From assembly GCA_050013255.1 (NCBI GenBank), contig JBEKFP010000002.1, positions 512,001 through 576,000 on the forward strand: a DNA stretch of 64,000 nucleotides. The letters are read 5' to 3'. Below, in pieces: positions 47,141 through 57,999 of this stretch. Position numbers and translations under genes: made by a program. Every line of letters starts with the position of its first letter. Position 1 is the first letter of the stretch. The DNA comes from Candidatus Bathyarchaeia archaeon. GTDB lineage: Archaea; Thermoproteota; Bathyarchaeia; 40CM-2-53-6. Under the pieces are notes generated by a model, which was not told the origin of the DNA, searched no databases, and worked only from the letters and a program-made list of their open reading frames with translations.

Positions 47141-47270
47141 AGGTCACCGATTTTGTTACTGCAGGTAAAAAATCCCCTATATAAAATTGCTGGGCCGGTC
47201 CTGTTACTTCTTCGGTTGACCATTTTAGGTCGGTTTAGGGGTTTTGGCTGTTACCTTTCGGTTGATTGGG

Positions 47271-47930
47271 CTAGCTTACCTGTGACATGGATTCGTTGAT
47301 GTGCCCGTCAGGTAGAACAAATACAAGGAATGAGTGAGTGACCACATATTCATCAACGCCGGTTCCGCGAACAAGATATCCACCATCCTGTAGTGCAGGC
47401 TCAACACGGACCTCCCAATTCCGTAGCCTTAATCCCCGCCTATCCGTAATCCAATCTATGGCCCTTTTAACTGCCAGTTCGCGGTCGATCTCCTTCGTGG
47501 CGAACGAACTAGGTGGTGGTGGCAGATATGGGTAGTACGATCCTCGTGGCTGCCGATTCTTCACTTGTGACTGAACGAGGTTTACTGTACCGCTTGAGGC
47601 GGGAACAAAAGTATCCAGCTTGCTTTTCAACCCTGCTGCTACATCTCTGAACCATAAAACGAGACCCAAAGTAGTTAGAAATTGGGCGGTGGATAAGGCA
47701 GGGTTATTTGTTTGAAACTGAGATGCGACAGAAATAGCAGAGGCACATGACAAAGCCACAAGACCCGTTCTGATTAAGAATTCCTCTGAATTCCACGCGA
47801 TGCTTACTTTGCTTCGATGTGATCTAACAAACAAGTACGCCACAGATAATCCTCCTATAACGAGCCACACCAGCAAATCAATGAGGTATAGCGAAGTGAA
47901 AAAATCGAGAAAGCCCAAGGTCAATCCCAA
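47271..47930 (-). CDS. Cargo membrane protein (4 TM + Pro linker + small C-terminal domain)
   Basis: Hydrophobic N-half; YPYLPPPPSS linker; start TTG 47930 probable. Confidence 0.65.
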   Translation of the reverse strand: MGLTLGFLDFFTSLYLIDLLVWLVIGGLSVAYLFVRSHRSKVSIAWNSEEFLIRTGLVALSCASAISVASQFQTNNPALSTAQFLTTLGLVLWFRDVAAGLKSKLDTFVPASSGTVNLVQSQVKNRQPRGSYYPYLPPPPSSFATKEIDRELAVKRAIDWITDRRGLRLRNWEVRVEPALQDGGYLVRGTGVDEYVVTHSFLVFVLPDGHINESMSQVS

Positions 47931-48073
47931 AATTGTTGAGCTACCAAACCTCCCGCGATCGCGCCTAGCGCAGCCCAAACAACATTTTGACCAAGAAACA
48001 CGTAGATCATTACGCCAGCAACTATTGCTCCTATTATGAAATGATTTCTTTGGCGTTCCGCTCTGTTTGACAT
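47921..48073 (-). CDS. Small 2-TM cargo protein (50 aa)
   Basis: MSNRAERQRNHFIIGAIVAG...GGLVAQQFWD; AGGAG upstream. Confidence 0.6.
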   Translation of the reverse strand: MSNRAERQRNHFIIGAIVAGVMIYVFLGQNVVWAALGAIAGGLVAQQFWD

Positions 48074-48129
48074 TCGTTTCTCCTTTCTGATATATTCACC
48101 TCTCTCCATCTTTAACACTATGCGAAAAA

Positions 48130-49260
48130 TCAGGTTGATTCTTGGCTAGCGTTTTGGATTAGGGTTAGCCACTTATCTTTTCCTTTGACTTTGATGCCCG
48201 CTAATTCGGCTGGGGTTTTTCCGTTTATTCCCATGTGTGGGCGAATGTAGTTGTGGAAAATTTGATAGCCTGTTAAGATTGGCGTGTCCTCTTTCTTGAG
48301 TGAGCGCATGACCTTCTCTCTGTCCCTGATTTCTCCGTTCATGCGTTCCATCTTGTTATTGTTCAAGTCACCTGACATACGAACATGTCGAATGTGTTGA
48401 ATCATCAGTGCCTTATTTTCACGCCAAAACGCTTTCTCGTAAGCCGAACTGAAGTTGAACGCTCCGTCTGTGATGAGTGTACTTGGTGCTTTCTCTGCGA
48501 ACTTCTTTCCTTCGCGGAATAGTGGTGTTATGTCGGCTGTGTATTTCGAGTCTGTGACTTGTTGAGCTATCCAGAACCGTGTCTCATCATCCATGAGAGC
48601 ATAGAGGTACTTCATATCTCCACGCACTTTCAGGAATAGTTCATCAGCTCTCCACGTGTCCGAGACTTGCGGCGTTATCTTGTCTAGGTACTTCTCCATC
48701 AATGCGGTGTACTTCTTTATCCACATGAACACGGTTTTGTGGCTAACTTGAACGCCAAGCAACCGAAGCGATCTTGCCGTGTTCCGTAGGCTCTCACCGG
48801 AAAAGTATAGTTGCATGGCGGTTGTGACACCATGCGGGTTATGCTTCATCTTTTCGAAACCGAGATTCACGCTGAAGGTTCTCTCACAATCGGCGCATAA
48901 GAAGCGTTGTAGGTTGCCACACTTGTTCCAGCGAACACCATATTTCTTCAAGTTACGTGAATGGCAGAAAACACATGAGTTGATTTCAACGGGTTGAATT
49001 ACGAATTCTCTGACTTTCTCACGTAGCTTTAGACTAAACTCAACGGCCCAGATATGCTTACATTTGACTTCGCGATGCGTGAAGTCGGGGCAGTTGCATA
49101 TCCAGCCAATAGCGAACGATTCTGTTCGAGCTACGTCGTACGTTATCTCGCGTGATTGGGAAGCTACCTTGTAGAACTTTTCGCTTAATCGTTGAACTTG
49201 GTTAGGCTTCTGCGCTATTGCTTGTCCTCTTTCCTGACGAGAGAGCATAGCTGTTTGCAT
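48130..49260 (-). CDS. IS6/IS240-like DDE transposase with N-terminal SWIM and zinc-ribbon domains
   Basis: CNCPD...CKH SWIM; CVFC...CADC; WRADE, ITDG, NNKMER triad; HNYIRPH...TPAE. Confidence 0.9.
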   Translation of the reverse strand: MQTAMLSRQERGQAIAQKPNQVQRLSEKFYKVASQSREITYDVARTESFAIGWICNCPDFTHREVKCKHIWAVEFSLKLREKVREFVIQPVEINSCVFCHSRNLKKYGVRWNKCGNLQRFLCADCERTFSVNLGFEKMKHNPHGVTTAMQLYFSGESLRNTARSLRLLGVQVSHKTVFMWIKKYTALMEKYLDKITPQVSDTWRADELFLKVRGDMKYLYALMDDETRFWIAQQVTDSKYTADITPLFREGKKFAEKAPSTLITDGAFNFSSAYEKAFWRENKALMIQHIRHVRMSGDLNNNKMERMNGEIRDREKVMRSLKKEDTPILTGYQIFHNYIRPHMGINGKTPAELAGIKVKGKDKWLTLIQNASQEST

Positions 49261-49271
49261 GTGTTTCGCCT

Positions 49272-49327
49272 ATGCTTTGATATTACAGCATAAGGCGTAT
49301 ATAACGATTACTGTGATATTACAGCAT
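49272..49327. promoter_or_regulatory. Divergent promoter with two near-palindromic operator-like boxes
   Basis: TGATATTACAGCAT at 49278-49291 and 49314-49327 flanking GTATATAAC. Confidence 0.65.
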
Positions 49328-49542
49328 TGGGAAAGAACGTGGTCAGAAAGCAAATTCTGGGCGATTGGGAGCGTAAGATACTCGTATCCTATCTCAAAGA
49401 TGAACGACTGAAAGGCTACACCGCTCTACTGTTTCACATTCGCAAGATGGGGTTAAAAGCAATCATAGACGGGTGCGAGAACGACCTCAAGATTCTGCGG
49501 CAACTAGCGACCAAGGAGGAAAAGAAAACTGAGCGCACTTAG
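49327..49542 (+). CDS. Small basic protein divergent from transposase (putative regulator)
   Basis: 71 aa, leaderless position downstream of the TATA box. Confidence 0.6.
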   Translation: MGKNVVRKQILGDWERKILVSYLKDERLKGYTALLFHIRKMGLKAIIDGCENDLKILRQLATKEEKKTERT

Positions 49543-49585
49543 ACATTTTAGGAGCGTTTTCCTCGCTTTTCCTTTTTCAATCCTT

Positions 49586-50005
49586 GTGATGCTTATCTTT
49601 GCCGCGATTTCAAGCGATGTTTGGATTTTCGTTGTCTCTGCTCTCTTAGCTTGGGTTATAGCAGATACGATATTCAATCTGTTAATTCGTGGTGGCGAGG
49701 GAATATTTCAAACGCGGCTCGCTGGCACGACTCACACACAAGCCGTTGGATACGGCTATCTTGTGTTCCTATTCGTTGTAGGTTTTGCCACGCTGATGGC
49801 TACCAAGTTCACTGAGTGGCTCATGCTGATTATCCCATTCTGGCTTAACTCATATGATGGAATGACTGGAGCCATAATCAATATTGCGAACATCCGGTAT
49901 GTCTCAGCGAGTTGGTTCTTCAGTACGCTGATAATCAGTTCCGCTGCCGGAATCGCTGCTTTGATTGATCTTTTCGTGAGATTCTATCAGCGGCATGAGA
50001 GATAG
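49586..50005 (+). CDS. Cargo membrane protein, paralog A1
   Basis: WIFVVSALLAWVIADTIFNLL; similar to ORF 50284. Confidence 0.7.
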   Translation: MMLIFAAISSDVWIFVVSALLAWVIADTIFNLLIRGGEGIFQTRLAGTTHTQAVGYGYLVFLFVVGFATLMATKFTEWLMLIIPFWLNSYDGMTGAIINIANIRYVSASWFFSTLIISSAAGIAALIDLFVRFYQRHER

Positions 50006-50189
50006 CTACGAAAACGCCCACGAGAGTTCCGAGAACTATCATTGGATTGACTCGAAAGTAGGCTGCGCACAACAGGAACACAATATCGCATAGAACGGTC
50101 ATAACAAGCATTTTTACAGGTATGGGCATCAGCAGGAACGGCTCACTCGCCCCACCAAGGAAACGCCTTACTACATCGCTAAATCTCAC
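49935..50189 (-). CDS. Small 2-TM cargo protein B1, convergent/overlapping with A1
   Basis: Hydrophobic hairpin; AAGGA-free start but clean 84-aa ORF. Confidence 0.5.
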   Translation of the reverse strand: MRFSDVVRRFLGGASEPFLLMPIPVKMLVMTVLCDIVFLLCAAYFRVNPMIVLGTLVGVFVAISHAADRISRKDQSKQRFRQRN

Positions 50190-50283
50190 TTGACTTAACC
50201 AAAGGAAAAATGCTTGTTATCCGACAAAAAGTAACACCAAATACCATCAGATAACAAGGTAACAGACCCCAGCTGAACCGTGA

Positions 50284-50646
50284 ATGTCACGAGACTTCTG
50301 GAAAAATGCGCTGATCGCTTTACCTATAGCAATAGGCATGTTGACTGCCCTAGAATGGTATAATCAGCAGTATTGGTTGTTTGCCGTTACGGGATTAGTC
50401 GGTTGGTGCGTCGCTGACTTTTTGTTTCGCATTCTTCAAAAACAAGGAGCAGTAAATGTCATCGACTTTGTTGGCTTCATAATCGTTGTCATCATGGCTA
50501 CCGCCGCAGGTGCTTACGTAAGCAACGCATTAGTGAATTCGCAGAAGACAAGCGAAAACCAGCTGATTCCAGCATTAATGGTCAACTTTGTTGCTGCCTC
50601 TCTCGCTTATGTTGAATCGAGTTATGAAATACAAGAGCACCTATAG
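50284..50646 (+). CDS. Cargo membrane protein, paralog A2
   Basis: WLFAVTGLVGWCVADFLFRIL; similar to ORF 49586. Confidence 0.7.
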   Translation: MSRDFWKNALIALPIAIGMLTALEWYNQQYWLFAVTGLVGWCVADFLFRILQKQGAVNVIDFVGFIIVVIMATAAGAYVSNALVNSQKTSENQLIPALMVNFVAASLAYVESSYEIQEHL

Positions 50647-50770
50647 TTGCAACAACATACGACACAACGCAAGCTATCAGAGTGATATGGGCATCAAGAT
50701 GTAAAACTAGGGCAATCCCAAGGAATAACGCTTCTAAAAGGGCAATCGCGATAGCTAACTGAACATCCAA
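50582..50770 (-). CDS. Small 2-TM cargo protein B2, convergent/overlapping with A2
   Basis: Hydrophobic hairpin; ATAAATA box ~20 nt upstream. Confidence 0.5.
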   Translation of the reverse strand: MDVQLAIAIALLEALFLGIALVLHLDAHITLIACVVSYVVATIGALVFHNSIQHKRERQQQS

Positions 50771-51027
50771 CCGTAGACGTCTGAAGATATTTATTGGTCC
50801 TATCAGTGATGGTCAGTTGTCTCCGAGATAGTGCCCTGTCAACCGAAAGGTAACAACGGACAAAATAGCCACAAAAATGCGCCCGTTAGAGCCTTTCAAC
50901 CGCAGAGGTAACACCACCGCTGGGCCGGCTCTTTTGCGTTCGTGGGACACGGCAAAAACGCCCTCGAAAGGGTTTGCAAAGCGGGACACAGACTTTTACC
51001 TGTCAAACTGCGGGACATGGCTAGGTA

Positions 51028-51915
51028 ATGCGCTTGGTAGGTTTGCGGCAGCGCATACGCGATTTCTGGATTACGTTAAGAGTGCATCGTATTGCGTGGG
51101 CTCTCACCCTTGGAAGCTTGTGGATTCTGTACTCGTGGATTATAGCCGAATGGTTTTACAGGCATGGAATAACGCGACGGTCAATCAGGTATTTCGTTCA
51201 TCGCCTTGCCAATGTTCTGCTCTGGCTAATTGGAGGACTAGTAGTGCTTCTCGTACTCGCCTATGGTCCGTCCTATGTCTACGAATTGGTACGATCATGG
51301 GTTGCTGAAAACTTGGTTAATCCAGCGCAATTCTTCACCGAGGCGCTCGTGCTGCTAATAGTTGAGCTACCAATACTGTACTTGGTCAGTCGCGTTGCAG
51401 GTGAATCCAAGTCACCCGTAGCAAGACTTCAGGTCAACGCCTCAAGACCAACTGAGAATAAAGATGGAAGTCTAATTCTCGGAGTAAATGTCACAAATGT
51501 CGGCGAAGTTGCAGCGGTTAGTTGTGAAGCGAGGCTCACCTTTGAACTCAAGTCAGGTGATTTAGTTGATTCAACCACAGACACAGTTTTCACTAGGGAC
51601 ACATTCAAACCGCCTTTGAGGACCAAGGTTCCTTGGAATAATGCAACACTATACACGCACTTAAGAGTCGGTGATTTGGGAGAGATTCCAGTCGTTAAAG
51701 TGTCGTTAGATTCAGAACATTTTGAAATACCGAGCGACCAAGGATGGACTCCTATCAGTCTTTCAGTGAGACCTGACCATTATTTCGGCTCAGTTAATGT
51801 TGTTCCGTTTAATGGAAGGCCCACTCTAACTCGTTTTGTCTTGAGACAGGTGGAGATTCCAGATCGCTATGGTAGGCCCACAGGGTTGTTGCGGTGGGGG
51901 GTACAGTTACTATGA
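51028..51915 (+). CDS. Membrane protein with C-terminal Ig-like beta domain
   Basis: 3 TM segments then V.VTNVG..AA..CEA beta-sandwich-like pattern. Confidence 0.65.
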   Translation: MRLVGLRQRIRDFWITLRVHRIAWALTLGSLWILYSWIIAEWFYRHGITRRSIRYFVHRLANVLLWLIGGLVVLLVLAYGPSYVYELVRSWVAENLVNPAQFFTEALVLLIVELPILYLVSRVAGESKSPVARLQVNASRPTENKDGSLILGVNVTNVGEVAAVSCEARLTFELKSGDLVDSTTDTVFTRDTFKPPLRTKVPWNNATLYTHLRVGDLGEIPVVKVSLDSEHFEIPSDQGWTPISLSVRPDHYFGSVNVVPFNGRPTLTRFVLRQVEIPDRYGRPTGLLRWGVQLL

Positions 51916-51916
51916 A

Positions 51917-52054
51917 TCATAGTTGCTTAGTCTTGAAGTATTCTCCTAGTACGGCTCTTACTGCTTCTGGGATGGATTCTAGTTTTCGTGCTTTGCGTTC
52001 TTGGTCTAGTGCCTTTACCATTTCATCGGACATGGCTACCATTATCTTGTTCAT
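51917..52054 (-). CDS. Ribbon-helix-helix (CopG-like) protein
   Basis: MNKIMVAMSDEMVKALD...SIPEAVRAVLGEYF. Confidence 0.8.
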   Translation of the reverse strand: MNKIMVAMSDEMVKALDQERKARKLESIPEAVRAVLGEYFKTKQL

Positions 52055-52296
52055 TGCCAAGTTTGACACGCTACCATTGTAGCGCAGCTCAGAATGGGGG
52101 AATCTGCCAAAATCTAGCGATCTAAACGCTTGGCAGCTAAAAAAGGCCAAATAGACAGGATTCGGCATTCTGGTTCACGCTGGAATCAAAAAGCCTCTCT
52201 TATCCTCCTAAATTGAACTTCCTTACGTAAATACGGCTTAACTTAGCACTCCAGGCAGGATTCTGCTAGCAACGGTGTGCTCTAGAGGACATATTC

Positions 52297-53634
52297 TTGA
52301 AAGCCGTCTTATCGATAGCGTTACTGGTTCTCATCTCCGCGATCTTTCTGCCCGCTGCGATGGGTTACATTTCTCCCACAACTACGAGCAGTCATCTCCA
52401 GGCAACTAATCCGTTAACGGTATGGTTTAATGGCGCTTTTCAATTGACCTTGGCGTATCCACCAGCGTATGAGTTCAATGTAGCGGCTAATACTGCTTCT
52501 GGGCTCTGGATAACGAGTCTACACTGGGACTTTGGAGACGGCGCCACCCGTGATGTTTCCTTCTCAGGTCAAAGCCAAGTTAGCGACATAGAAGACCACC
52601 AGTACTCAAGCCAAGGAAACTTCTGTGTTACCGTTACGGCGTACGACAGCGCGGGGAACGTGGCAAGCGTTAGTCAACCCCTGATGACAAATTATGATTT
52701 CACGTTGACGGCGACTCCGGCTGCGCAGAACGTTACACCAGGAGCATCTGCTACTTACAATGTAATCGTTGGACAATGGCCACTGGCGTGTGGTAGCGGA
52801 GTGTCCGTCAGCCTAGCCATATCCTCCCCGGCTCCACAAGGAGTTACGTGGACACTGAATCCTGCCTCCGGAAAGACACCTTTCACTTCCACCCTTAAGG
52901 TACAGACAGCAACTACGACACCTACCGGAACCTACACGATTAACATCGTTGGAACTAGCTCCAACCTAGCGCACACAACGACAGTAAATCTCGTCGTGGG
53001 TCAACCATACTTTGCGCTCTCCGCCGCTCCAAGTTCGTTGTTCGTGCCCCCCCAACCAAACGCGCAACCGGGGATAATGAATACGACCACGGTGACGGTT
53101 CAGTCCTTCAATGGGTTCAACAGCCCGGTGACCCTTACCGATTCGGGACTACCAAATGGAATGACGGCATACTTCCTTCCACCAACAATTACGCCTCCCC
53201 CGAACGGACAAGTTGCGACTCTGCTTACATTCACGACCCCATGCAGTGTATCCCCTGGATCGTACGTAATAGTCGTTCAAGGAACTGGCGGCGGAGTAAC
53301 GAGGCAGGTGAATGTCAACCTTACAGTTGCTTCCTGTGCTGCGGCGCAAGGCTCCGGAGGTTTCGGAATTTGGCCATGGATCATAGGAGGGGTACTTGGA
53401 TTGCTCATTCTTCTCCCAATCCTTCTCATCCTTCTCTACATGCGGAGACCAGTTCTCGCTCCTGCAGTCGTTCCAGCTCCCGCGGTGGTTCCAGCAGTCG
53501 TTCTTTTCCCCGTCCCTGTCACACCTATTCCGCCTCCGCCGGCAATTGCAACAATGCCTTGCCCTGTTTGTGGCAACCCTATGAGACCTGTAGAGGTGAG
53601 ATGGTATTGCGACCTCTGCCAGAGATACGTGTGA
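52297..53634 (+). CDS. Cell-surface protein: signal peptide, PKD, two Ig-like repeats, TM, Pro-rich tail, zinc ribbon
   Basis: WDFGDG; FTL.A.P...GTYTI.I.GT repeats; TM; CPVC...WYCDLC. Confidence 0.85.
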   Translation: MKAVLSIALLVLISAIFLPAAMGYISPTTTSSHLQATNPLTVWFNGAFQLTLAYPPAYEFNVAANTASGLWITSLHWDFGDGATRDVSFSGQSQVSDIEDHQYSSQGNFCVTVTAYDSAGNVASVSQPLMTNYDFTLTATPAAQNVTPGASATYNVIVGQWPLACGSGVSVSLAISSPAPQGVTWTLNPASGKTPFTSTLKVQTATTTPTGTYTINIVGTSSNLAHTTTVNLVVGQPYFALSAAPSSLFVPPQPNAQPGIMNTTTVTVQSFNGFNSPVTLTDSGLPNGMTAYFLPPTITPPPNGQVATLLTFTTPCSVSPGSYVIVVQGTGGGVTRQVNVNLTVASCAAAQGSGGFGIWPWIIGGVLGLLILLPILLILLYMRRPVLAPAVVPAPAVVPAVVLFPVPVTPIPPPPAIATMPCPVCGNPMRPVEVRWYCDLCQRYV

Positions 53635-53740
53635 ATCCATCCCAAATAGTCCCCCTCGCCATCCACTTCTTGGGCGTTTTGGACGCCCGCCTTTTCTAAT
53701 GAAGTAGCAGTGGAAAAGTTAGAGACAGTTCTATCTTTGC

Positions 53741-53804
53741 TGTTACCTCTTCGGTTGACCAGGTTCGTTCAGTTTGGGGGTTTTGGCTGTTACTTTTTGG
53801 TTGG
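53741..53804. repeat. Second copy of the transposon end (two TGTTAC motifs)
   Basis: Aligns with 47202-47265 including the GGGGTTTTGGCTGTTAC spacer and 47-bp motif spacing. Confidence 0.8.
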
Positions 53805-54074
53805 TGGAAGTAACTTGCAATCAGGATACTCCGAAGTTAGAGGGAAGAACTTAGTCTACAAGCTTAGATGCTTTCTTAAAAAGCCAAAGCGCCCCTAAAG
53901 CTTGAAGCGGCAGCGACACCCATACCATTAACATTACGAGACTCATTTGTAGGTTCTCTGTGTCTACGTAGGATGATGTTGAGATAAGATCAACATCCAG
54001 TTCTCTTGGAAGCATTGTTTACTTGTGAGCCAGCTATTGTCACAAGTAGTCACATGTAGCAACAGCTGTTAGAG

Positions 54075-54362
54075 TTACTTTTGACTTGCGTTCTGGATAA
54101 GAGTTAGCCATTTATCTTTTCCCTTAACTTTGATTCCAGCAACTTCGGCTGGTGTTTGTCCATCTAGGCCCATGTGTGGTCGTATGTAGTTGTGGAAGAT
54201 TTGGCAACCCGTTAGGATTGGGCTGTCTCCTTTCTTCAAGGAACGCATGACCTTTTCTCTGTCGCGGATTTCTCCGTTCATTTGTTCCGTCTTATTATTG
54301 TGAACGCTTCCATCAATGCGAATGTCTTGAACATGCTCAAGTGCGAGGGCTTTCTTTTCCCT
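54075..54362 (-). pseudogene. 3-prime remnant of IS6-like transposase
   Basis: REKKALALEHVQDIRIDGSVHNNKTEQMNGEIRDREKVMRSLK...KWLTLIQNASQK, closely matching the 48130 gene. Confidence 0.9.
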
Positions 54363-54428
54363 CCCTTCTTTTCCTTCTGCCCTTTGCTGTTACATGTCGG
54401 GACTTCGGCTCACACTATAGATTGGAGG

Positions 54429-54896
54429 CTACATTTTCGAGGTGGTTGGTGGCTTCCAAGTCAAAGCGAGTATTCCACCGAGAACTCCGAGGACCAAGCC
54501 TACTCCGAAGCCTGCCATAGCACTGCCAAATATGCTCAGAACCGAGAAGATTAGGATGAGCAGCCCCCATTTTGAGTGGTCAATTGGGTTGTTGTAGAGC
54601 ATTAGGCTGCTGACCATGACCACAATTCCGAACACTATGCCCGCAAGGCCGAATATTCCACCGAACCCGTATCCTCCCATCATTCCGAACCCGGGACCAT
54701 ACGAGTATCGGCCCATCATCCCCCATCCATATCCACCGTATCCTCCATACCCTGAATAGCCATTCATCATCCCGCCAAACCCGAACGGCCCCACCATTGA
54801 CATCATTCCTCCCCCCAACAGAATGAAGATGCCCCCAATCAGTGAGAGCACGAAAGCAATCGTAGGTTTCTCTTCTGCTGACATGTTTGGTTTCAC
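54429..54896 (-). CDS. Membrane protein with Gly/Met/Tyr-rich loop
   Basis: AFVLSLIGGIFIL, GGMMNGYSGYGGYGGYGWGMMG, G..LG..GGILAL.W. Confidence 0.75.
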   Translation of the reverse strand: MKPNMSAEEKPTIAFVLSLIGGIFILLGGGMMSMVGPFGFGGMMNGYSGYGGYGGYGWGMMGRYSYGPGFGMMGGYGFGGIFGLAGIVFGIVVMVSSLMLYNNPIDHSKWGLLILIFSVLSIFGSAMAGFGVGLVLGVLGGILALTWKPPTTSKM

Positions 54897-55180
54897 TGGC
54901 TGCTAAAGCCTAGCTCAGGTTTCCATCTGACCCTGAGGGTTTATAGTTTTCGTGTGTGAATGGATGAAAAGTCTCTAGTCTGGTTGCGTGTAGGTTCTCC
55001 GCGGTTTCAGATACAGTTCATCGGCTCGCGAAGTATCGCTTACTTGAGGCTGAATCTGCTCTGAAGAGATTCTGTTACATCCTAGGGACACGGGAAAAGG
55101 TGTTACAAAACGGGACATTTTCAATTAGCCGGATGGCTTAAAGATGGTTTTCTGACACCCGTGATCCAAAAAACAATGTA

Positions 55181-55813
55181 TTATCTTCCTCTCCTAATTG
55201 ATGCGGTTTTTGGTGGCCTCGCAATCGTATGGATGTTAATGGAAAGTGGCAGCTTTGCGATGGTTAAGCCCACGGGGCAAGTCTGGGGGTCTACTGGAAT
55301 AGTGGTGTTAATTGTTCGGCTTACCGTCTCACCGAGTTCTAAAACGAATACGGAAATTGTGATACTAGCGGCTGTGATTCTAACGTTTGTGGATAAGGTA
55401 CCTCCATGTAATGCGATGGCGAACGCGCGATTAGGTGCTGTAAACATTTGGGTGTCATACGGATGAGTTCTGTTGGCATAAATGGTTGTCCCGTTAGAGA
55501 AGGTTAGTGCGTCGTACGTGATAGATGAATTAACCATGTGAACTGATTCATTGAGACGGTTCACGAAATTTGTGAGCAAAACCGGAAAGGGAGGAGAAGT
55601 CGCATTCCTCCAGCAGATGTACGTATCAACTAAACTGAAATCACTGTCGTGGAGTGGTATGTACGTCGAAGTTGCTGTCGTCGGTATGCTTGGTGGCGAC
55701 TCATAGTATGAATAATAAATGTACCAAGAGATGAAAACAACAATGCCCAGTAAGGCTATGGCTTTCCCATATTTGAGATAGCTACGTTTCTTCGTTTTTT
55801 CCGAGGTACTCAC
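55181..55813 (-). CDS. Membrane-anchored secreted protein
   Basis: Basic N-terminus + one TM, Ser/Thr-rich beta domain with several N-x-S/T sequons. Confidence 0.65.
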   Translation of the reverse strand: MSTSEKTKKRSYLKYGKAIALLGIVVFISWYIYYSYYESPPSIPTTATSTYIPLHDSDFSLVDTYICWRNATSPPFPVLLTNFVNRLNESVHMVNSSITYDALTFSNGTTIYANRTHPYDTQMFTAPNRAFAIALHGGTLSTNVRITAASITISVFVLELGETVSRTINTTIPVDPQTCPVGLTIAKLPLSINIHTIARPPKTASIRRGR

Positions 55814-56041
55814 CTAGAATTACTACTCTAGCGGTTTCAGGTATCGTTCCTAACATACGTTTCTTACGTTCTTTCTCAAGAGTCTTCCCCCACGTCCTCA
55901 GTTATGGAGAGCATGAAACGCTTCATTGCCAACGGTTGCACCTATTGATTCCTATTGATTGATGGACTCCCTTGTGGAGAATATGCTCACTATGATTACG
56001 TCATCATCTTCACGAGACATATGGGGATTAGGTTATTTTGC

Positions 56042-56122
56042 CTACTTCTTACTTGCGTTCTGTATCAGTGTAAGCCATTTGTTCTCGCACTTGACCTGAA
56101 TTCCTGCCACTTCGGCTGGCGA
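56042..56122 (-). pseudogene. Third, short 3-prime remnant of IS6-like transposase
   Basis: Manual translation SPAEVAGIQVKCENKWLTLIQNASKK*. Confidence 0.85.
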
Positions 56123-56265
56123 GCTGCTGTTAAGTTCGTGTTTGGTGTTCAGGGCTGTCAAAAGTCGTTGGGTGGAGCTACTGTAGCTCTTTGAGGCCCT
56201 TGACGAGTTTTTCATAGTCTCTCTCTAATCTGCTGGTCAATCCAGAAGCGGGTTTTATCGCTTCA

Positions 56266-57999
56266 CTACTGATGGGCAAAGTACAAAGTGGCAAGGTTAG
56301 GGGCGACTTTGTCCACCCTGCCGAAACCAAACCTGACGAATTGGATGACGGAGCCAACGGGTTCGGAGCAGAAGCCGCTCTCAACGAAACCGCGCTTAGT
56401 GGACGCATCAGGCATTACGACGTCAGCTGGAAGGGTTTGCTCAGCGGGAACCCACTGTAAGATCGGAGTGCTCTCGTGACCTTCGACGGTTTCGCCAAGA
56501 AATTCGGCCTTAAGTTCGCCATCCGAGAAATTGAGAGGCTTGACGTTGAACAGCCCCATCAATCGGATCATTTTGCCTGACTCGAGAATTTGCCTGTCGC
56601 TCCCTGCGAGGAAGAGGGAGGCTACGCCGTTCTGTGGCTGCAGTTTCAGGGTACGGGTTCCCATTTCTGGACGTTGCGGGTGAAGCGCGGCATGCACTTC
56701 GAAGACCTTCTCAACGCCACTGACGCTCGCCCTAATGGGGTCCGGTACGAAGTAGTATCGGTGAGATGTTGAGTCGATGATTTTTCGGTTTAGAGCGTTG
56801 ATGTTGTCCCAGCTTATCGTCACGTCCACGGGTTTAGGGCCGACGTCCCATATGAGTTGTCTTATTGTTTCTGGGCTGAAACCCCGCCTTCTTAGTGCCG
56901 CTAATGTTCCGAGCCTTGGATCATCGATACCTTCGTATTCGCCTGATTCAACACCTTTCATAAGTTTGGATTTGCTGAGTTCCATTCCTTCAACCTTGAG
57001 CCGTCCGTAATGAACAGCGTCCGGATACTTCCAGCCCAAGTGTTTGTACATGTAGATCTGGCGGGCCATGTTTGTGAGGTGTTCTTTTCCTCGGATCACG
57101 TGCGTTATGCCCAGGGTGTGGTCGTCAACACCAGATGCCAGGTTGTAAAGCGGCCACACATGGAATCTTGATCCCACGCGGGGGTGGGGGTTCTTGTCTG
57201 TGTCTATGATTCGGAAGGCCGGCCAGTCCCTAATGGCTGGGTTAGGATGCGATAGGTCCGTCTTAACACGGACAACGGCTTCGCCCTCCTTGTACCCACC
57301 ATCGAGCATCTTCCTCCAACGTTTCGTTTGGGTGTCCGCATCCAACTCTCGGTCGGGGCAGGCGGAATTGCTGTTGACGAGTTCTCGAAATCGTTCTGGT
57401 TTGCATTCACAGACGTACGCGGCCCCTTTCGTGATAAGAGTTTGAGCTACCTCATAGTAGAGTGGAATTCGGTCGCTCTGGATGTACTCTTCGTCCCAGT
57501 TGCAGCCTAGCCACCTCAAATCTTCGCGGATGATGTCGTAGTATTTCAGTTGGGCTTTCTTGAGGCGGGGGTCAGTATCTTCGAACCTAACAATGAATTT
57601 CCCTTTATACATCTGAGCGTAGTCGTGGCTTAGGATAACGGCCCGCGCATTGCCTATGTGAAGGACGAAGTCGGGGTTAGGTGCAATACGCGTCACTATG
57701 AGCGAATACTTGTCGGCGTTTGGGAGGGGCGGCAGCTTTCTTTCCTCCTCAGGCCGTTCCTTAACCAGCTCCTCCGGCCACCGTTCCGTTGCTATGGCTG
57801 TAAGTTTCTCCAATGGCATAGAGTTAATTTCTTCAACGACTCCCCGCACTTGTGATGTTAGTTCCCTTGCCTTTGGTTTCAAGTCGGGATTTTCCCCGAG
57901 CAAGTTCCCGAGAACTGCGCCGGGTTCGGCTTTGCCATTATGCTTAATCGCATTGAGTATGGCAGCCTTCCTCATCTTCTCGGTTAGCTCGTTTGACAT
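56266..57999 (-). CDS. gltX: Glutamyl-tRNA synthetase
   Basis: RIAPNP...HIGN, RFEDTD, THVIRGKEH, LSKS, QFVRFGF. Confidence 0.96.
   Translation of the reverse strand: MSNELTEKMRKAAILNAIKHNGKAEPGAVLGNLLGENPDLKPKARELTSQVRGVVEEINSMPLEKLTAIATERWPEELVKERPEEERKLPPLPNADKYSLIVTRIAPNPDFVLHIGNARAVILSHDYAQMYKGKFIVRFEDTDPRLKKAQLKYYDIIREDLRWLGCNWDEEYIQSDRIPLYYEVAQTLITKGAAYVCECKPERFRELVNSNSACPDRELDADTQTKRWRKMLDGGYKEGEAVVRVKTDLSHPNPAIRDWPAFRIIDTDKNPHPRVGSRFHVWPLYNLASGVDDHTLGITHVIRGKEHLTNMARQIYMYKHLGWKYPDAVHYGRLKVEGMELSKSKLMKGVESGEYEGIDDPRLGTLAALRRRGFSPETIRQLIWDVGPKPVDVTISWDNINALNRKIIDSTSHRYYFVPDPIRASVSGVEKVFEVHAALHPQRPEMGTRTLKLQPQNGVASLFLAGSDRQILESGKMIRLMGLFNVKPLNFSDGELKAEFLGETVEGHESTPILQWVPAEQTLPADVVMPDASTKRGFVESGFCSEPVGSVIQFVRFGFGRVDKVAPNLATLYFAHQ

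Follow-up and report, generated by a model that had tools for sequence, protein, structure and literature searches.

This work concerns a stretch of 64,000 nucleotides from the genome of a Candidatus Bathyarchaeia archaeon (contig JBEKFP010000002.1, positions 512,001 to 576,000), which we call the window, and in particular its segment 47197-50918, which is very probably a passenger-carrying transposon related to the insertion sequence (IS) family IS6 and bounded by ends with two sites each. We are equally confident that this element is an intact, single-copy member of a large and undescribed Bathyarchaeia family, whose members may be called 'tIS' or unit transposons. A preliminary description of the sequence had proposed a poorly described archaeal family of unit transposons with an IS6-like SWIM-DDE transposase and cargo, and the comparison with relatives bears this out, since 25 of 30 full-length copies from relatives share the architecture and identical copies have moved. 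The most interesting property of the family is its promoter-proximal position, which in the window is the promoter of a thermosome gene.

With its tips taken at 47197 and 50918, the transposon spans 3,722 bp, and the 8-bp target duplication GCTGGGCC is perfect on both flanks. Read from outside, both ends begin with GG-N3-TGTTAC (GGTCCTGTTAC and GGTGGTGTTAC), and the two terminal inverted repeats are identical at 19 of 24 positions. The paired end motifs of the preliminary description were recovered at the positions listed in the table, the outer pair agreeing at 16 of 18 positions and the inner pair at 17 of 17, while shuffles of the window put the chance expectation for the outer and inner patterns at 0.01-0.03 matches per window. 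The flanking 10-bp repeat GCTGGGCCGG that had been reported is also present (47189-98 and 50919-28), is separated from the outer motifs by 3 nt and 5 nt on its outer side, in agreement with the earlier finding, and occurs exactly twice in the window against 0.14 occurrences expected. As the length of the duplication, however, 10 bp was rejected in favour of 8 bp, because the 3'-most GG of each repeat copy belongs to the tip of an element: the left GG (47197-98) is the IS6-like tip of the transposon itself, and that on the right (50927-28) is contributed by the tip of an adjoining relic element, so that together they made the repeat look 10 bp long. A duplication of 8 bp rather than 10 brings the element nearer to IS6. 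There is one transposase gene with open reading frames (ORFs) on both sides, and the left end lies just upstream of the thermosome TATA box, both of which had been described correctly; the distance to the TATA box is 2 nt. The element is not a composite transposon, as it has a single transposase gene and its ends are site pairs of about 70 bp, with no bracketing IS copies.

The transposase matches the Pfam family DDE_Tnp_IS240 (PF13610) with 56.1 bits against a cut-off of 27 (E 5.6e-15) and the Pfam SWIM domain with 22.2 bits against a cut-off of 19.6. The best model for it is NCBIfam IS6 (NF033587), which it matches with 102.1 bits, residues 135-337 covering the full length of the model; the paralogue on contig 1 of the same genome scores 114.8 bits against this model. 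In an alignment of 17 family members, the DDE triad (D206, D265 and E305) and R312, seven residues past the glutamate, are invariant, and so are the SWIM finger residues C55, C57, C67 and H69 and the four cysteines of a zinc ribbon (C96, C99, C122 and C125). A helix-turn-helix (HTH) lies at about 135-195, and the ribbon is similar to the zinc domain of IS1/IS1595, with a score slightly under the cut-off. Because of this model coverage and these invariant residues, the C-terminal 240 residues are a complete yet divergent IS6-type transposase, and the N-terminal 134 residues are a SWIM-plus-ribbon module that was added to it. The IS256 (Mutator-like) model gave only 17.3 bits against a cut-off of 150, which places the protein outside the Mutator type. 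No related solved structure was found by a sequence search of the PDB with the transposase profile. The AlphaFold model built from the 17 sequences was poor, with a mean predicted local distance difference test score of 54 and confident regions only at about 10-80 and 100-135, and a Foldseek search of the PDB with this poor model returned nothing better than E 0.03.

Contig 1 of the source genome (2.46 Mb, 3 contigs) carries one further full copy, which is 57% identical at the protein level, and the genome also contains ten transposase fragments, all of them C-terminal. The contig-1 copy has the ends GGTTCTGTCAAA...CGGGAGAT with the second half-site repeated internally, a duplication of 8 bp (CGCATCAG), and ORFs to the left and right of its transposase gene. 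Among sampled relatives, 19 of 22 other genomes of the genus have the transposase, often in multiple copies, and a large protein database contained 5,402 protein clusters at E <= 0.001, the few named ones belonging to metagenome-assembled genomes (MAGs) labelled 'Candidatus Bathyarchaeia archaeon' and carrying generic annotation only. Around full-length copies, 20 loci were screened for GG...CC ends next to which the same 8-mer occurs on either flank. Of the 30 full-length copies, 25 proved to have GG...CC ends with inverted repeats of 17-24/24 and perfect 8-bp duplications, and the relatives delimited in this way were 2,031-4,966 bp long. In a block-shuffle control (150 trials), the best pair of GG, 8-bp repeat and CC reached an inverted-repeat identity of 13/24 at most. 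An association of the end motif with the transposase elsewhere, on which the preliminary description had staked its reading, is found in the relatives, in these 25 of 30 copies and in their two-site ends.

The two-site pattern is present in every delimited element (54 ends) and is weak at three ends. The outer site starts 5 nt from the tip and consists of a 6-nt half-site, a 5-nt spacer and a second half-site of 7-8 nt, and at 47 of the 54 ends the best match was an inner copy whose spacer is shorter by exactly 1 nt (4 nt). The inner site starts 31-64 nt from the tip, in most cases at 34, 43/44, 52/53 or 64, which means that its positions mostly follow steps of about 10 bp, or about one helical turn. 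The three weak ends (both ends of the element at locus L059 and one other) match at only 9-10 of 14 positions, and one of these best matches, at 97 nt, is outside the series. The second half-site varies by lineage (CGGTTGA, CGTTTGG, GGGACAC, CGTCGG, CGGGAGA, GTCACC or CGTCTGC), and within a given element it does not differ between outer and inner sites or between the two ends; the tips of other sub-types begin with GGTAACGT. This co-variation of half-sites is the strongest sequence evidence that they are protein-binding sites to which a protein would bind, and it is compatible with a transposase that has two DNA-reading modules.

Movement of the whole unit is directly evidenced by a pair of copies in genome G011. 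These copies (L054 and L055) agree throughout their 2,748 bp, ORFs other than the transposase included, and they sit at unrelated sites (flanks of 23-30% identity) with different duplications (ATCCCGAG and TTACGTAA). The elements hold non-transposition genes and a single transposase gene within one pair of ends and move as a whole, as unit transposons do, and for the copy in the window the support is the perfect duplication around matched ends. Another element, with a 90%-identical transposase, has the same end motifs, the duplication CCTGCCGA and a length of 4,014 bp, and its passengers are entirely different.

When the transposase is set on the plus strand, the gene order is the same in every element: upstream end, variable ORFs, a small ORF on the opposite strand, the transposase, variable ORFs and downstream end. 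The slot of the small ORF is filled by at least four unrelated types across the lineages. Type 1, as in the window, is a helical protein of 60-67 aa (without a Pfam match, and with a mean column identity of 67% among 11 aligned members), and the other types are ribbon-helix-helix (RHH) proteins, AbrB/MazE-like proteins (weak match) and further RHH proteins. Because unrelated DNA-binding folds share this one fixed slot, their presence suggests a regulator of the divergent promoter or an accessory factor. The 67-aa protein of the window is thus a putative regulator or accessory DNA-binding protein, and the 17-nt direct repeats CTKTGATATTACAGCAT that lie between its gene and the transposase gene may serve as an operator. 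The contig-1 element also has, in the gap between transposase and small gene (L009 2641-2694), two copies of a 17-nt palindrome, TGCCACAATATTGTGGC, which parallel the 17-nt repeats of the window and are likely the operator of the small regulator of that element.

The variable ORFs across the family are mostly orphans, many of them coding for membrane proteins, and their content differs by lineage; a few have NYN, glyoxalase, Ig-like or C39-peptidase-like domains. A comparison of the passengers with PADLOC gave no match to a known defence family. The passengers in the window occur once in the source genome, and gene calls on this locus in independent metagenome assemblies give the same set (120, 138, 67, 376, 50 and 217 aa). 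Homologues of the 217-aa protein with 51-53% identity occupy the same position in two other elements. The 50-aa gene, which has 65-68% identity to its counterparts in L115-L117, accompanies the 217-aa gene, and the pair is also found 3' of the transposase in two other elements with different end types. On the other side of the transposase, the 120-aa and 138-aa proteins have a weak local similarity of 29 residues only; paralogy of the two membrane-gene modules was considered and rejected, as the match is confined to these residues and the antisense ORFs had no match and were not called by gene callers.

Table 1. Features of the element and its borders (positions in the window)
Feature	Position	Strand	Details
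Thermosome promoter as target	47155..47186	-	TATA 47178-86; palindrome TTTTAC-CTGCA-GTAAC 47155-70; duplication ends 18 nt upstream
Left duplication copy	47189..47196	none	GCTGGGCC; abuts GG tip; 8 bp family-wide
Terminal inverted repeat, transposase-3' side (downstream end)	47197..47220	+	GG-TCC-TGTTAC-TTCTT-CGGTTGA; outer site 47202-47219
Left inner (subterminal) site	47249..47265	+	TGTTAC-CTTT-CGGTTGA; 53 nt from tip; spacer 1 nt shorter than in outer site
Passenger, membrane protein	47271..47924	-	217 aa (235 aa from TTG at 47978); no Pfam family
Small passenger, one hydrophobic helix	47921..48073	-	50 aa (65 aa from 48118)
Transposase gene	48130..49260	-	376 aa
Divergent promoter region	49275..49327	+	Two 17-nt direct repeats CTKTGATATTACAGCAT (49275-91, 49311-27) around TATA-like sequence
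Small conserved gene	49339..49542	+	67 aa, MVRKQILG...; divergent from transposase
Passenger, multi-pass membrane protein	49589..50005	+	138 aa; no family
Tip-like stretch	50221..50269	-	GGGTCTGTTACC at 50246-50269, 17/24 to a family inverted repeat; GTAACA near 50231
Passenger, membrane protein	50284..50646	+	120 aa
Right inner site	50839..50855	-	64 nt from tip
Terminal inverted repeat, transposase-5' side (upstream end)	50895..50918	-	GG-TGG-TGTTAC-CTCTG-CGGTTGA; outer site 50896-50913
Right duplication copy	50919..50926	none	GCTGGGCC
Tip of older, decayed family member	50927..50950	+	GGCTCTTTTGCGTTCGTGGGACAC; abuts duplication; 21/24 to another member's inverted repeat

The position beside the TATA box, which the preliminary description had noted for the window, is more than incidental, as it reflects a precise preference throughout the family. 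Beyond the duplication, most elements have either a family tip exactly 8 bp off or a TATA box 2-5 nt off, and in the TATA-adjoining cases the start of a gene that reads away from the element follows 45-70 nt further on. The genes next to the insertions are two thermosome paralogues, Hsp20, an HtpX-type M48 peptidase, the ribosomal protein S17e and a few others, and the target gene families were identified as Cpn60_TCP1, HSP20 and Peptidase_M48. Most of these promoters have the palindrome T(G/T)TTAC-N5-GTAAC directly 3' of the TATA box. In all cases examined, a distance of 17 or 18 nt separates this palindrome from the end of the duplication upstream of it, even where small insertions or deletions move the TATA box. 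A search of the genus (23 genomes) for tip(ACANNNCC)-N25/26-TKTTAC-N5-GTAAC gave 12 matches, involving various elements and various 8-mers, and the reversed control gave 0. The first count of a pattern at the Hsp20 promoter (19 matches, 0 in the control) was judged to be confounded, because tip plus 8-mer mimics the native palindrome, and was rejected.

The source genome has about four promoters of this type, among which those of the thermosome and Hsp20 are occupied and that of HtpX is empty (it is occupied in genome G002). Its TTTATA sites number 156 (both strands, 2.46 Mb) against about 1,200 expected from length, and consensus TATA boxes thus appear to be strongly avoided outside a small set of promoters; 4 of the 156 sites have a family tip at the fixed offset. 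Elements also form arrays. At L042 two elements have GTGAAGGA between them and again on either outer flank (three times in all), and arrays with TTACGTAA are found at L043-L045, L055 and L115. Such arrays with one shared 8-mer are the expected outcome of repeated insertion at a single fixed spot. Between the thermosome gene and gltX lie about 9.1 kb in the window (47188-56266), taken up by the intact element together with relics; the same spacer is shorter in G013 (about 3.7 kb), G011 (about 1.1 kb) and G001 (about 0.4 kb). The pattern of insertion is observed directly in these genomes, and from it we infer how the target is chosen: insertion is likely to be actively directed to the region of heat-shock-type promoters.

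Several observations weigh against our overall reading of the element and its target. The 102.1 bits of the transposase fall under NCBI's curated IS6 equivalog cut-off of 125 bits, and the source genome has only one intact copy of this sub-type, whose activity is thus conjectural. As for the target, native promoters seem to carry an upstream GTTAC-N5-GTAA, and its outer half, GGTAAC, is the tip of many members; because tip plus 8-mer in this way rebuilds the native palindrome, targeting is hard to separate from insertion beside resident tips. Next to orthologous thermosome TATA boxes, the 8-mers vary from genome to genome to a greater degree than the re-use of a single 8-mer predicts, and 3 of the 26 delimited elements (L053, L054 and in part L041) are at sites without an obvious promoter or tip. 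An empty thermosome site was not found: the exact-junction pattern had 0 matches in metagenome contigs, the ORF in the right flank has almost no homologues in relatives, and the short spacers of G001 and G011 are not clean empty sites, as they have GGTAAC at the critical position. Finally, transposase binding at the motifs, the function ascribed to the small protein and movement by copy-in are proposals.

The promoter position could in principle be a product of survivorship, if insertion were random and only those harmless insertions persisted that lie near core promoters or old elements. The promoter stays intact when an element inserts, with its 8-bp duplication, immediately upstream of the transcription factor B recognition element and the TATA box, and such an insertion is plausibly neutral; moreover, a few elements sit elsewhere (L053 and L054). 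However, survivorship would permit any intergenic position, whereas at least 12 insertions of different elements keep 17-18 nt to the palindrome, at promoters of thermosome alpha and beta, Hsp20, HtpX and other genes, with 0 in the control, and the chance of a TTTATA at an offset of 2-5 is about 3e-4 per site. Pure survivorship is thus unlikely, and in our estimate clearly so, because the offset is precise to 1 nt. It has also to be considered that a resident end, or a native sequence that looks like GGTAAC, directs insertion to the adjoining 8 bp, so that TATA box and palindrome would be irrelevant. About 20 of the 26 elements have another family tip exactly 8 bp past one of their tips, the element in the window adjoins a relic tip at 50927, and the native-looking promoters of G001 and G011 have GGTAAC at that position, all of which would agree with targeting by tips only. 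We nevertheless consider this explanation doubtful: the HtpX promoter of the source genome (C3:26305) is without a tip-like sequence at that position, and its orthologue in G002 is occupied at the usual offset, while thermosome promoters with small insertions or deletions keep the offset of the palindrome more constant than that of the TATA box. For the reading that we prefer, in which insertion is directed to the promoter region, we can offer a tentative model that is possible although far from assured. The transposase may dock, by its SWIM and zinc modules or by an end-like half-site of the operator, on the complex of TATA box and heat-shock operator in a small stress regulon and then integrate a set distance away; the arrays would then be a platform for the exchange of passengers through decay and renewed use of ends, and sub-types with GGTAAC tips would rebuild the split palindrome.

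Other explanations concern the extent of the element and the enzyme that moves it. As elements stack tip-to-tip, a shorter core might be the real mobile unit, and the right arm (50270-50918) might be the leftover of a neighbour, with its cargo as debris of an array. The perfect 8-bp duplication lies at the outermost ends, though, the outer and inner sites all belong to one sub-type (inner sites 17/17), all 26 elements have passengers in the interval from the small gene to the end, and the identical pair moved as a whole; accretion may be part of the history of the element, yet the last insertion used the present ends. A shorter core is accordingly very unlikely. Still more improbable, to the point that we give it hardly any credit, is a site-specific recombinase that acts at an 8-bp att core in the manner of integrons and cassettes, with the DDE protein as a passenger. 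The sharing of one 8-mer by the members of an array (TTACGTAA or GTGAAGGA) would fit such an enzyme, but an integrase gene is absent from the elements, the 8-mers vary by locus, and elements outside arrays have unrelated 8-mers (ATCCCGAG, CTTTCTTA). Moreover, the ends are inverted repeats with IS6-type tips, and the 8-bp duplication is a hallmark of IS6 (PMC7986276).

For the IS6-related transposon that we favour, the following course of events can be proposed. The transposase would bind the outer and inner sites at both ends, its zinc modules and HTH reading the two half-sites, a synaptic complex would form, and the target would be cut with an 8-bp stagger. By analogy with IS6, movement may occur by copy-in via a cointegrate, although the simple insertions with their duplications would agree with this or another pathway, and the small divergent protein may repress or assist from the repeats in the shared promoter. 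Insertions at a fixed spot would cause elements to stack tip-to-tip with the same 8-mer between them, and by accretion neighbours would fuse once their inner tips have decayed, after which the outermost compatible ends would be used. Because the window element contains the tip-like stretch GGGTCTGTTACC and tip-to-tip arrays occur in the family, we speculate that this stacking and decay of inner tips is a route by which passengers are gained and swapped.

Known IS6 members are 0.7-0.9 kb long (in clades h and i, lengths reach about 1.8 kb) and have one ORF and one inverted repeat of 15-20 bp per end (PMC7986276), with GG tips and a cTGTt motif (PMC7986276; the GG/TGT tip criterion is also given in PMC6807381). 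The elements described here share with IS6/IS26 the IS240/IS6 DDE core, a lysine or arginine seven residues past the glutamate, the 8-bp duplication and GG tips with TGT at 6-8, and the clostridial IS6 clades h and i have an N-terminal zinc-finger extension too. In contrast to IS6/IS26, they are 2.0-5.0 kb long, have two sites at each end and carry passengers as well as a second conserved gene, and thus depart from the minimal architecture. Two reviews of IS6 (PMC7986276, PMC6807381) make no mention of SWIM, of members in Thaumarchaeota or Thermoproteota, or of bipartite ends. ISDsp3 of Dehalococcoides has been described as the sole IS6 member with a passenger gene (PMC7986276). It is alike in being an IS6-type element with a non-transposition gene, yet it is single-copy with one hypothetical gene, whereas the passengers in the present family are family-wide, two-sided and variable by lineage. 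We are therefore dealing with a distinct branch of IS6-like elements, probably at the level of a family, with a new architecture and behaviour.

Several phased transposase sites per end are a feature of Tn7, Mu, IS21 and Tn402, but here the two sites per end are symmetric and there is no ATPase or target-selector gene. With regard to the target, the Ty3, Ty1 and Tf1 retroelements of yeasts insert at a fixed place upstream of starts bound by basal factors, which is a safe haven for them; they are eukaryotic retroelements with integrases, and the likeness is functional only. In bacteria, TnGBS, ISLre2 and ISKra4 insert at sigma-A promoters, 15-17 bp upstream of the -35 box, and a promoter preference of the archaeal ISH6 has been a matter of speculation only (PMC3942029). 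Insertion a set distance away from promoters and large cargo are common to TnGBS, ISLre2, ISKra4 and the present family, although the former are bacterial, with a transposase of another superfamily and another promoter type. To our knowledge, fixed-distance promoter targeting by an archaeal transposon has not been known before, and the placement upstream of thermosome, Hsp20 and HtpX promoters, if true, would be the archaeal counterpart to TnGBS in bacteria and Ty3 in yeast.

Passenger-carrying transposons have been reported as undetected in archaea by a survey of thaumarchaeal mobile elements (PMC6563490), and a survey of archaeal IS elements from 2026 mentions neither Bathyarchaeia nor passenger genes. 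No description was found in the literature consulted on SWIM, IS6 and archaea, on IS elements of Bathyarchaeia and on archaeal TATA targeting, ISfinder being outside the scope of this search. The family breaks both generalisations, namely that archaea have no passenger transposons and that IS6 is minimal with one exception. It is also abundant, with thousands of metagenome protein clusters, and its co-varying two-site ends are a ready system for the question of how a zinc-finger/HTH transposase reads DNA.

The analysis also reveals a candidate heat-shock operator in Bathyarchaeia. Across the genus, T(G/T)TTAC-N5-GTAAC lies 5-11 nt 3' of the TATA box at thermosome, Hsp20 and HtpX (M48) genes (window 47155-47170; source genome C1:106318, C3:26305 and C1:1104026; flanks of L042-L061), and a second GTTAC-N5-GTAA is often found just upstream of the same TATA boxes. 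This palindrome looks like the operator of a small heat-shock regulon of Bathyarchaeia.

To the right of the element, 50927-53634 is the relic arm of a second sub-type of the family. After 50950 it has a 295-aa ORF, which encodes a membrane protein, and an RHH gene (51917-52168, minus strand), and in the expected place of the transposase there is a 445-aa secreted PKD-domain protein with a C-terminal CxxC...CxxC (52297-53634). A third motif of the outer type at 53741-53758 is also part of a relic, which consists of an end and a C-terminal transposase fragment of 68-104 aa (about 54075-54368). Among the transposase fragments of the source genome and the 22 relatives, C-terminal pieces of 40-150 aa far outnumber N-terminal ones, and those in the window are at 54075-54368 and 56045-56152. 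The transposase-3' end faces the promoter in 9 of 13 cases, and this may be the reason for the excess of C-terminal fragments if deletions are one-sided, with only those tolerated that affect the side facing away from the essential promoter.

Some arrays and loci of relatives show further rearrangement. At L045 (G017:C4:831053-846840), two identical inverted elements of 2,644 bp surround a third one with a truncated transposase, all junctions being TTACGTAA, and a perfect inverted repeat of 584 bp that reaches into the flanking DNA is suggestive of a recent inversion or duplication inside the array. One MAG has two thermosome loci, L104 (G004:C40) and L105 (G004:C10), with 94-96% and 81-83% identity to the window, and they carry different remains of elements; they represent either two strains in one bin or paralogous loci. 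On G004:C40, a truncated transposase is fused directly to the 3' side of gltX.

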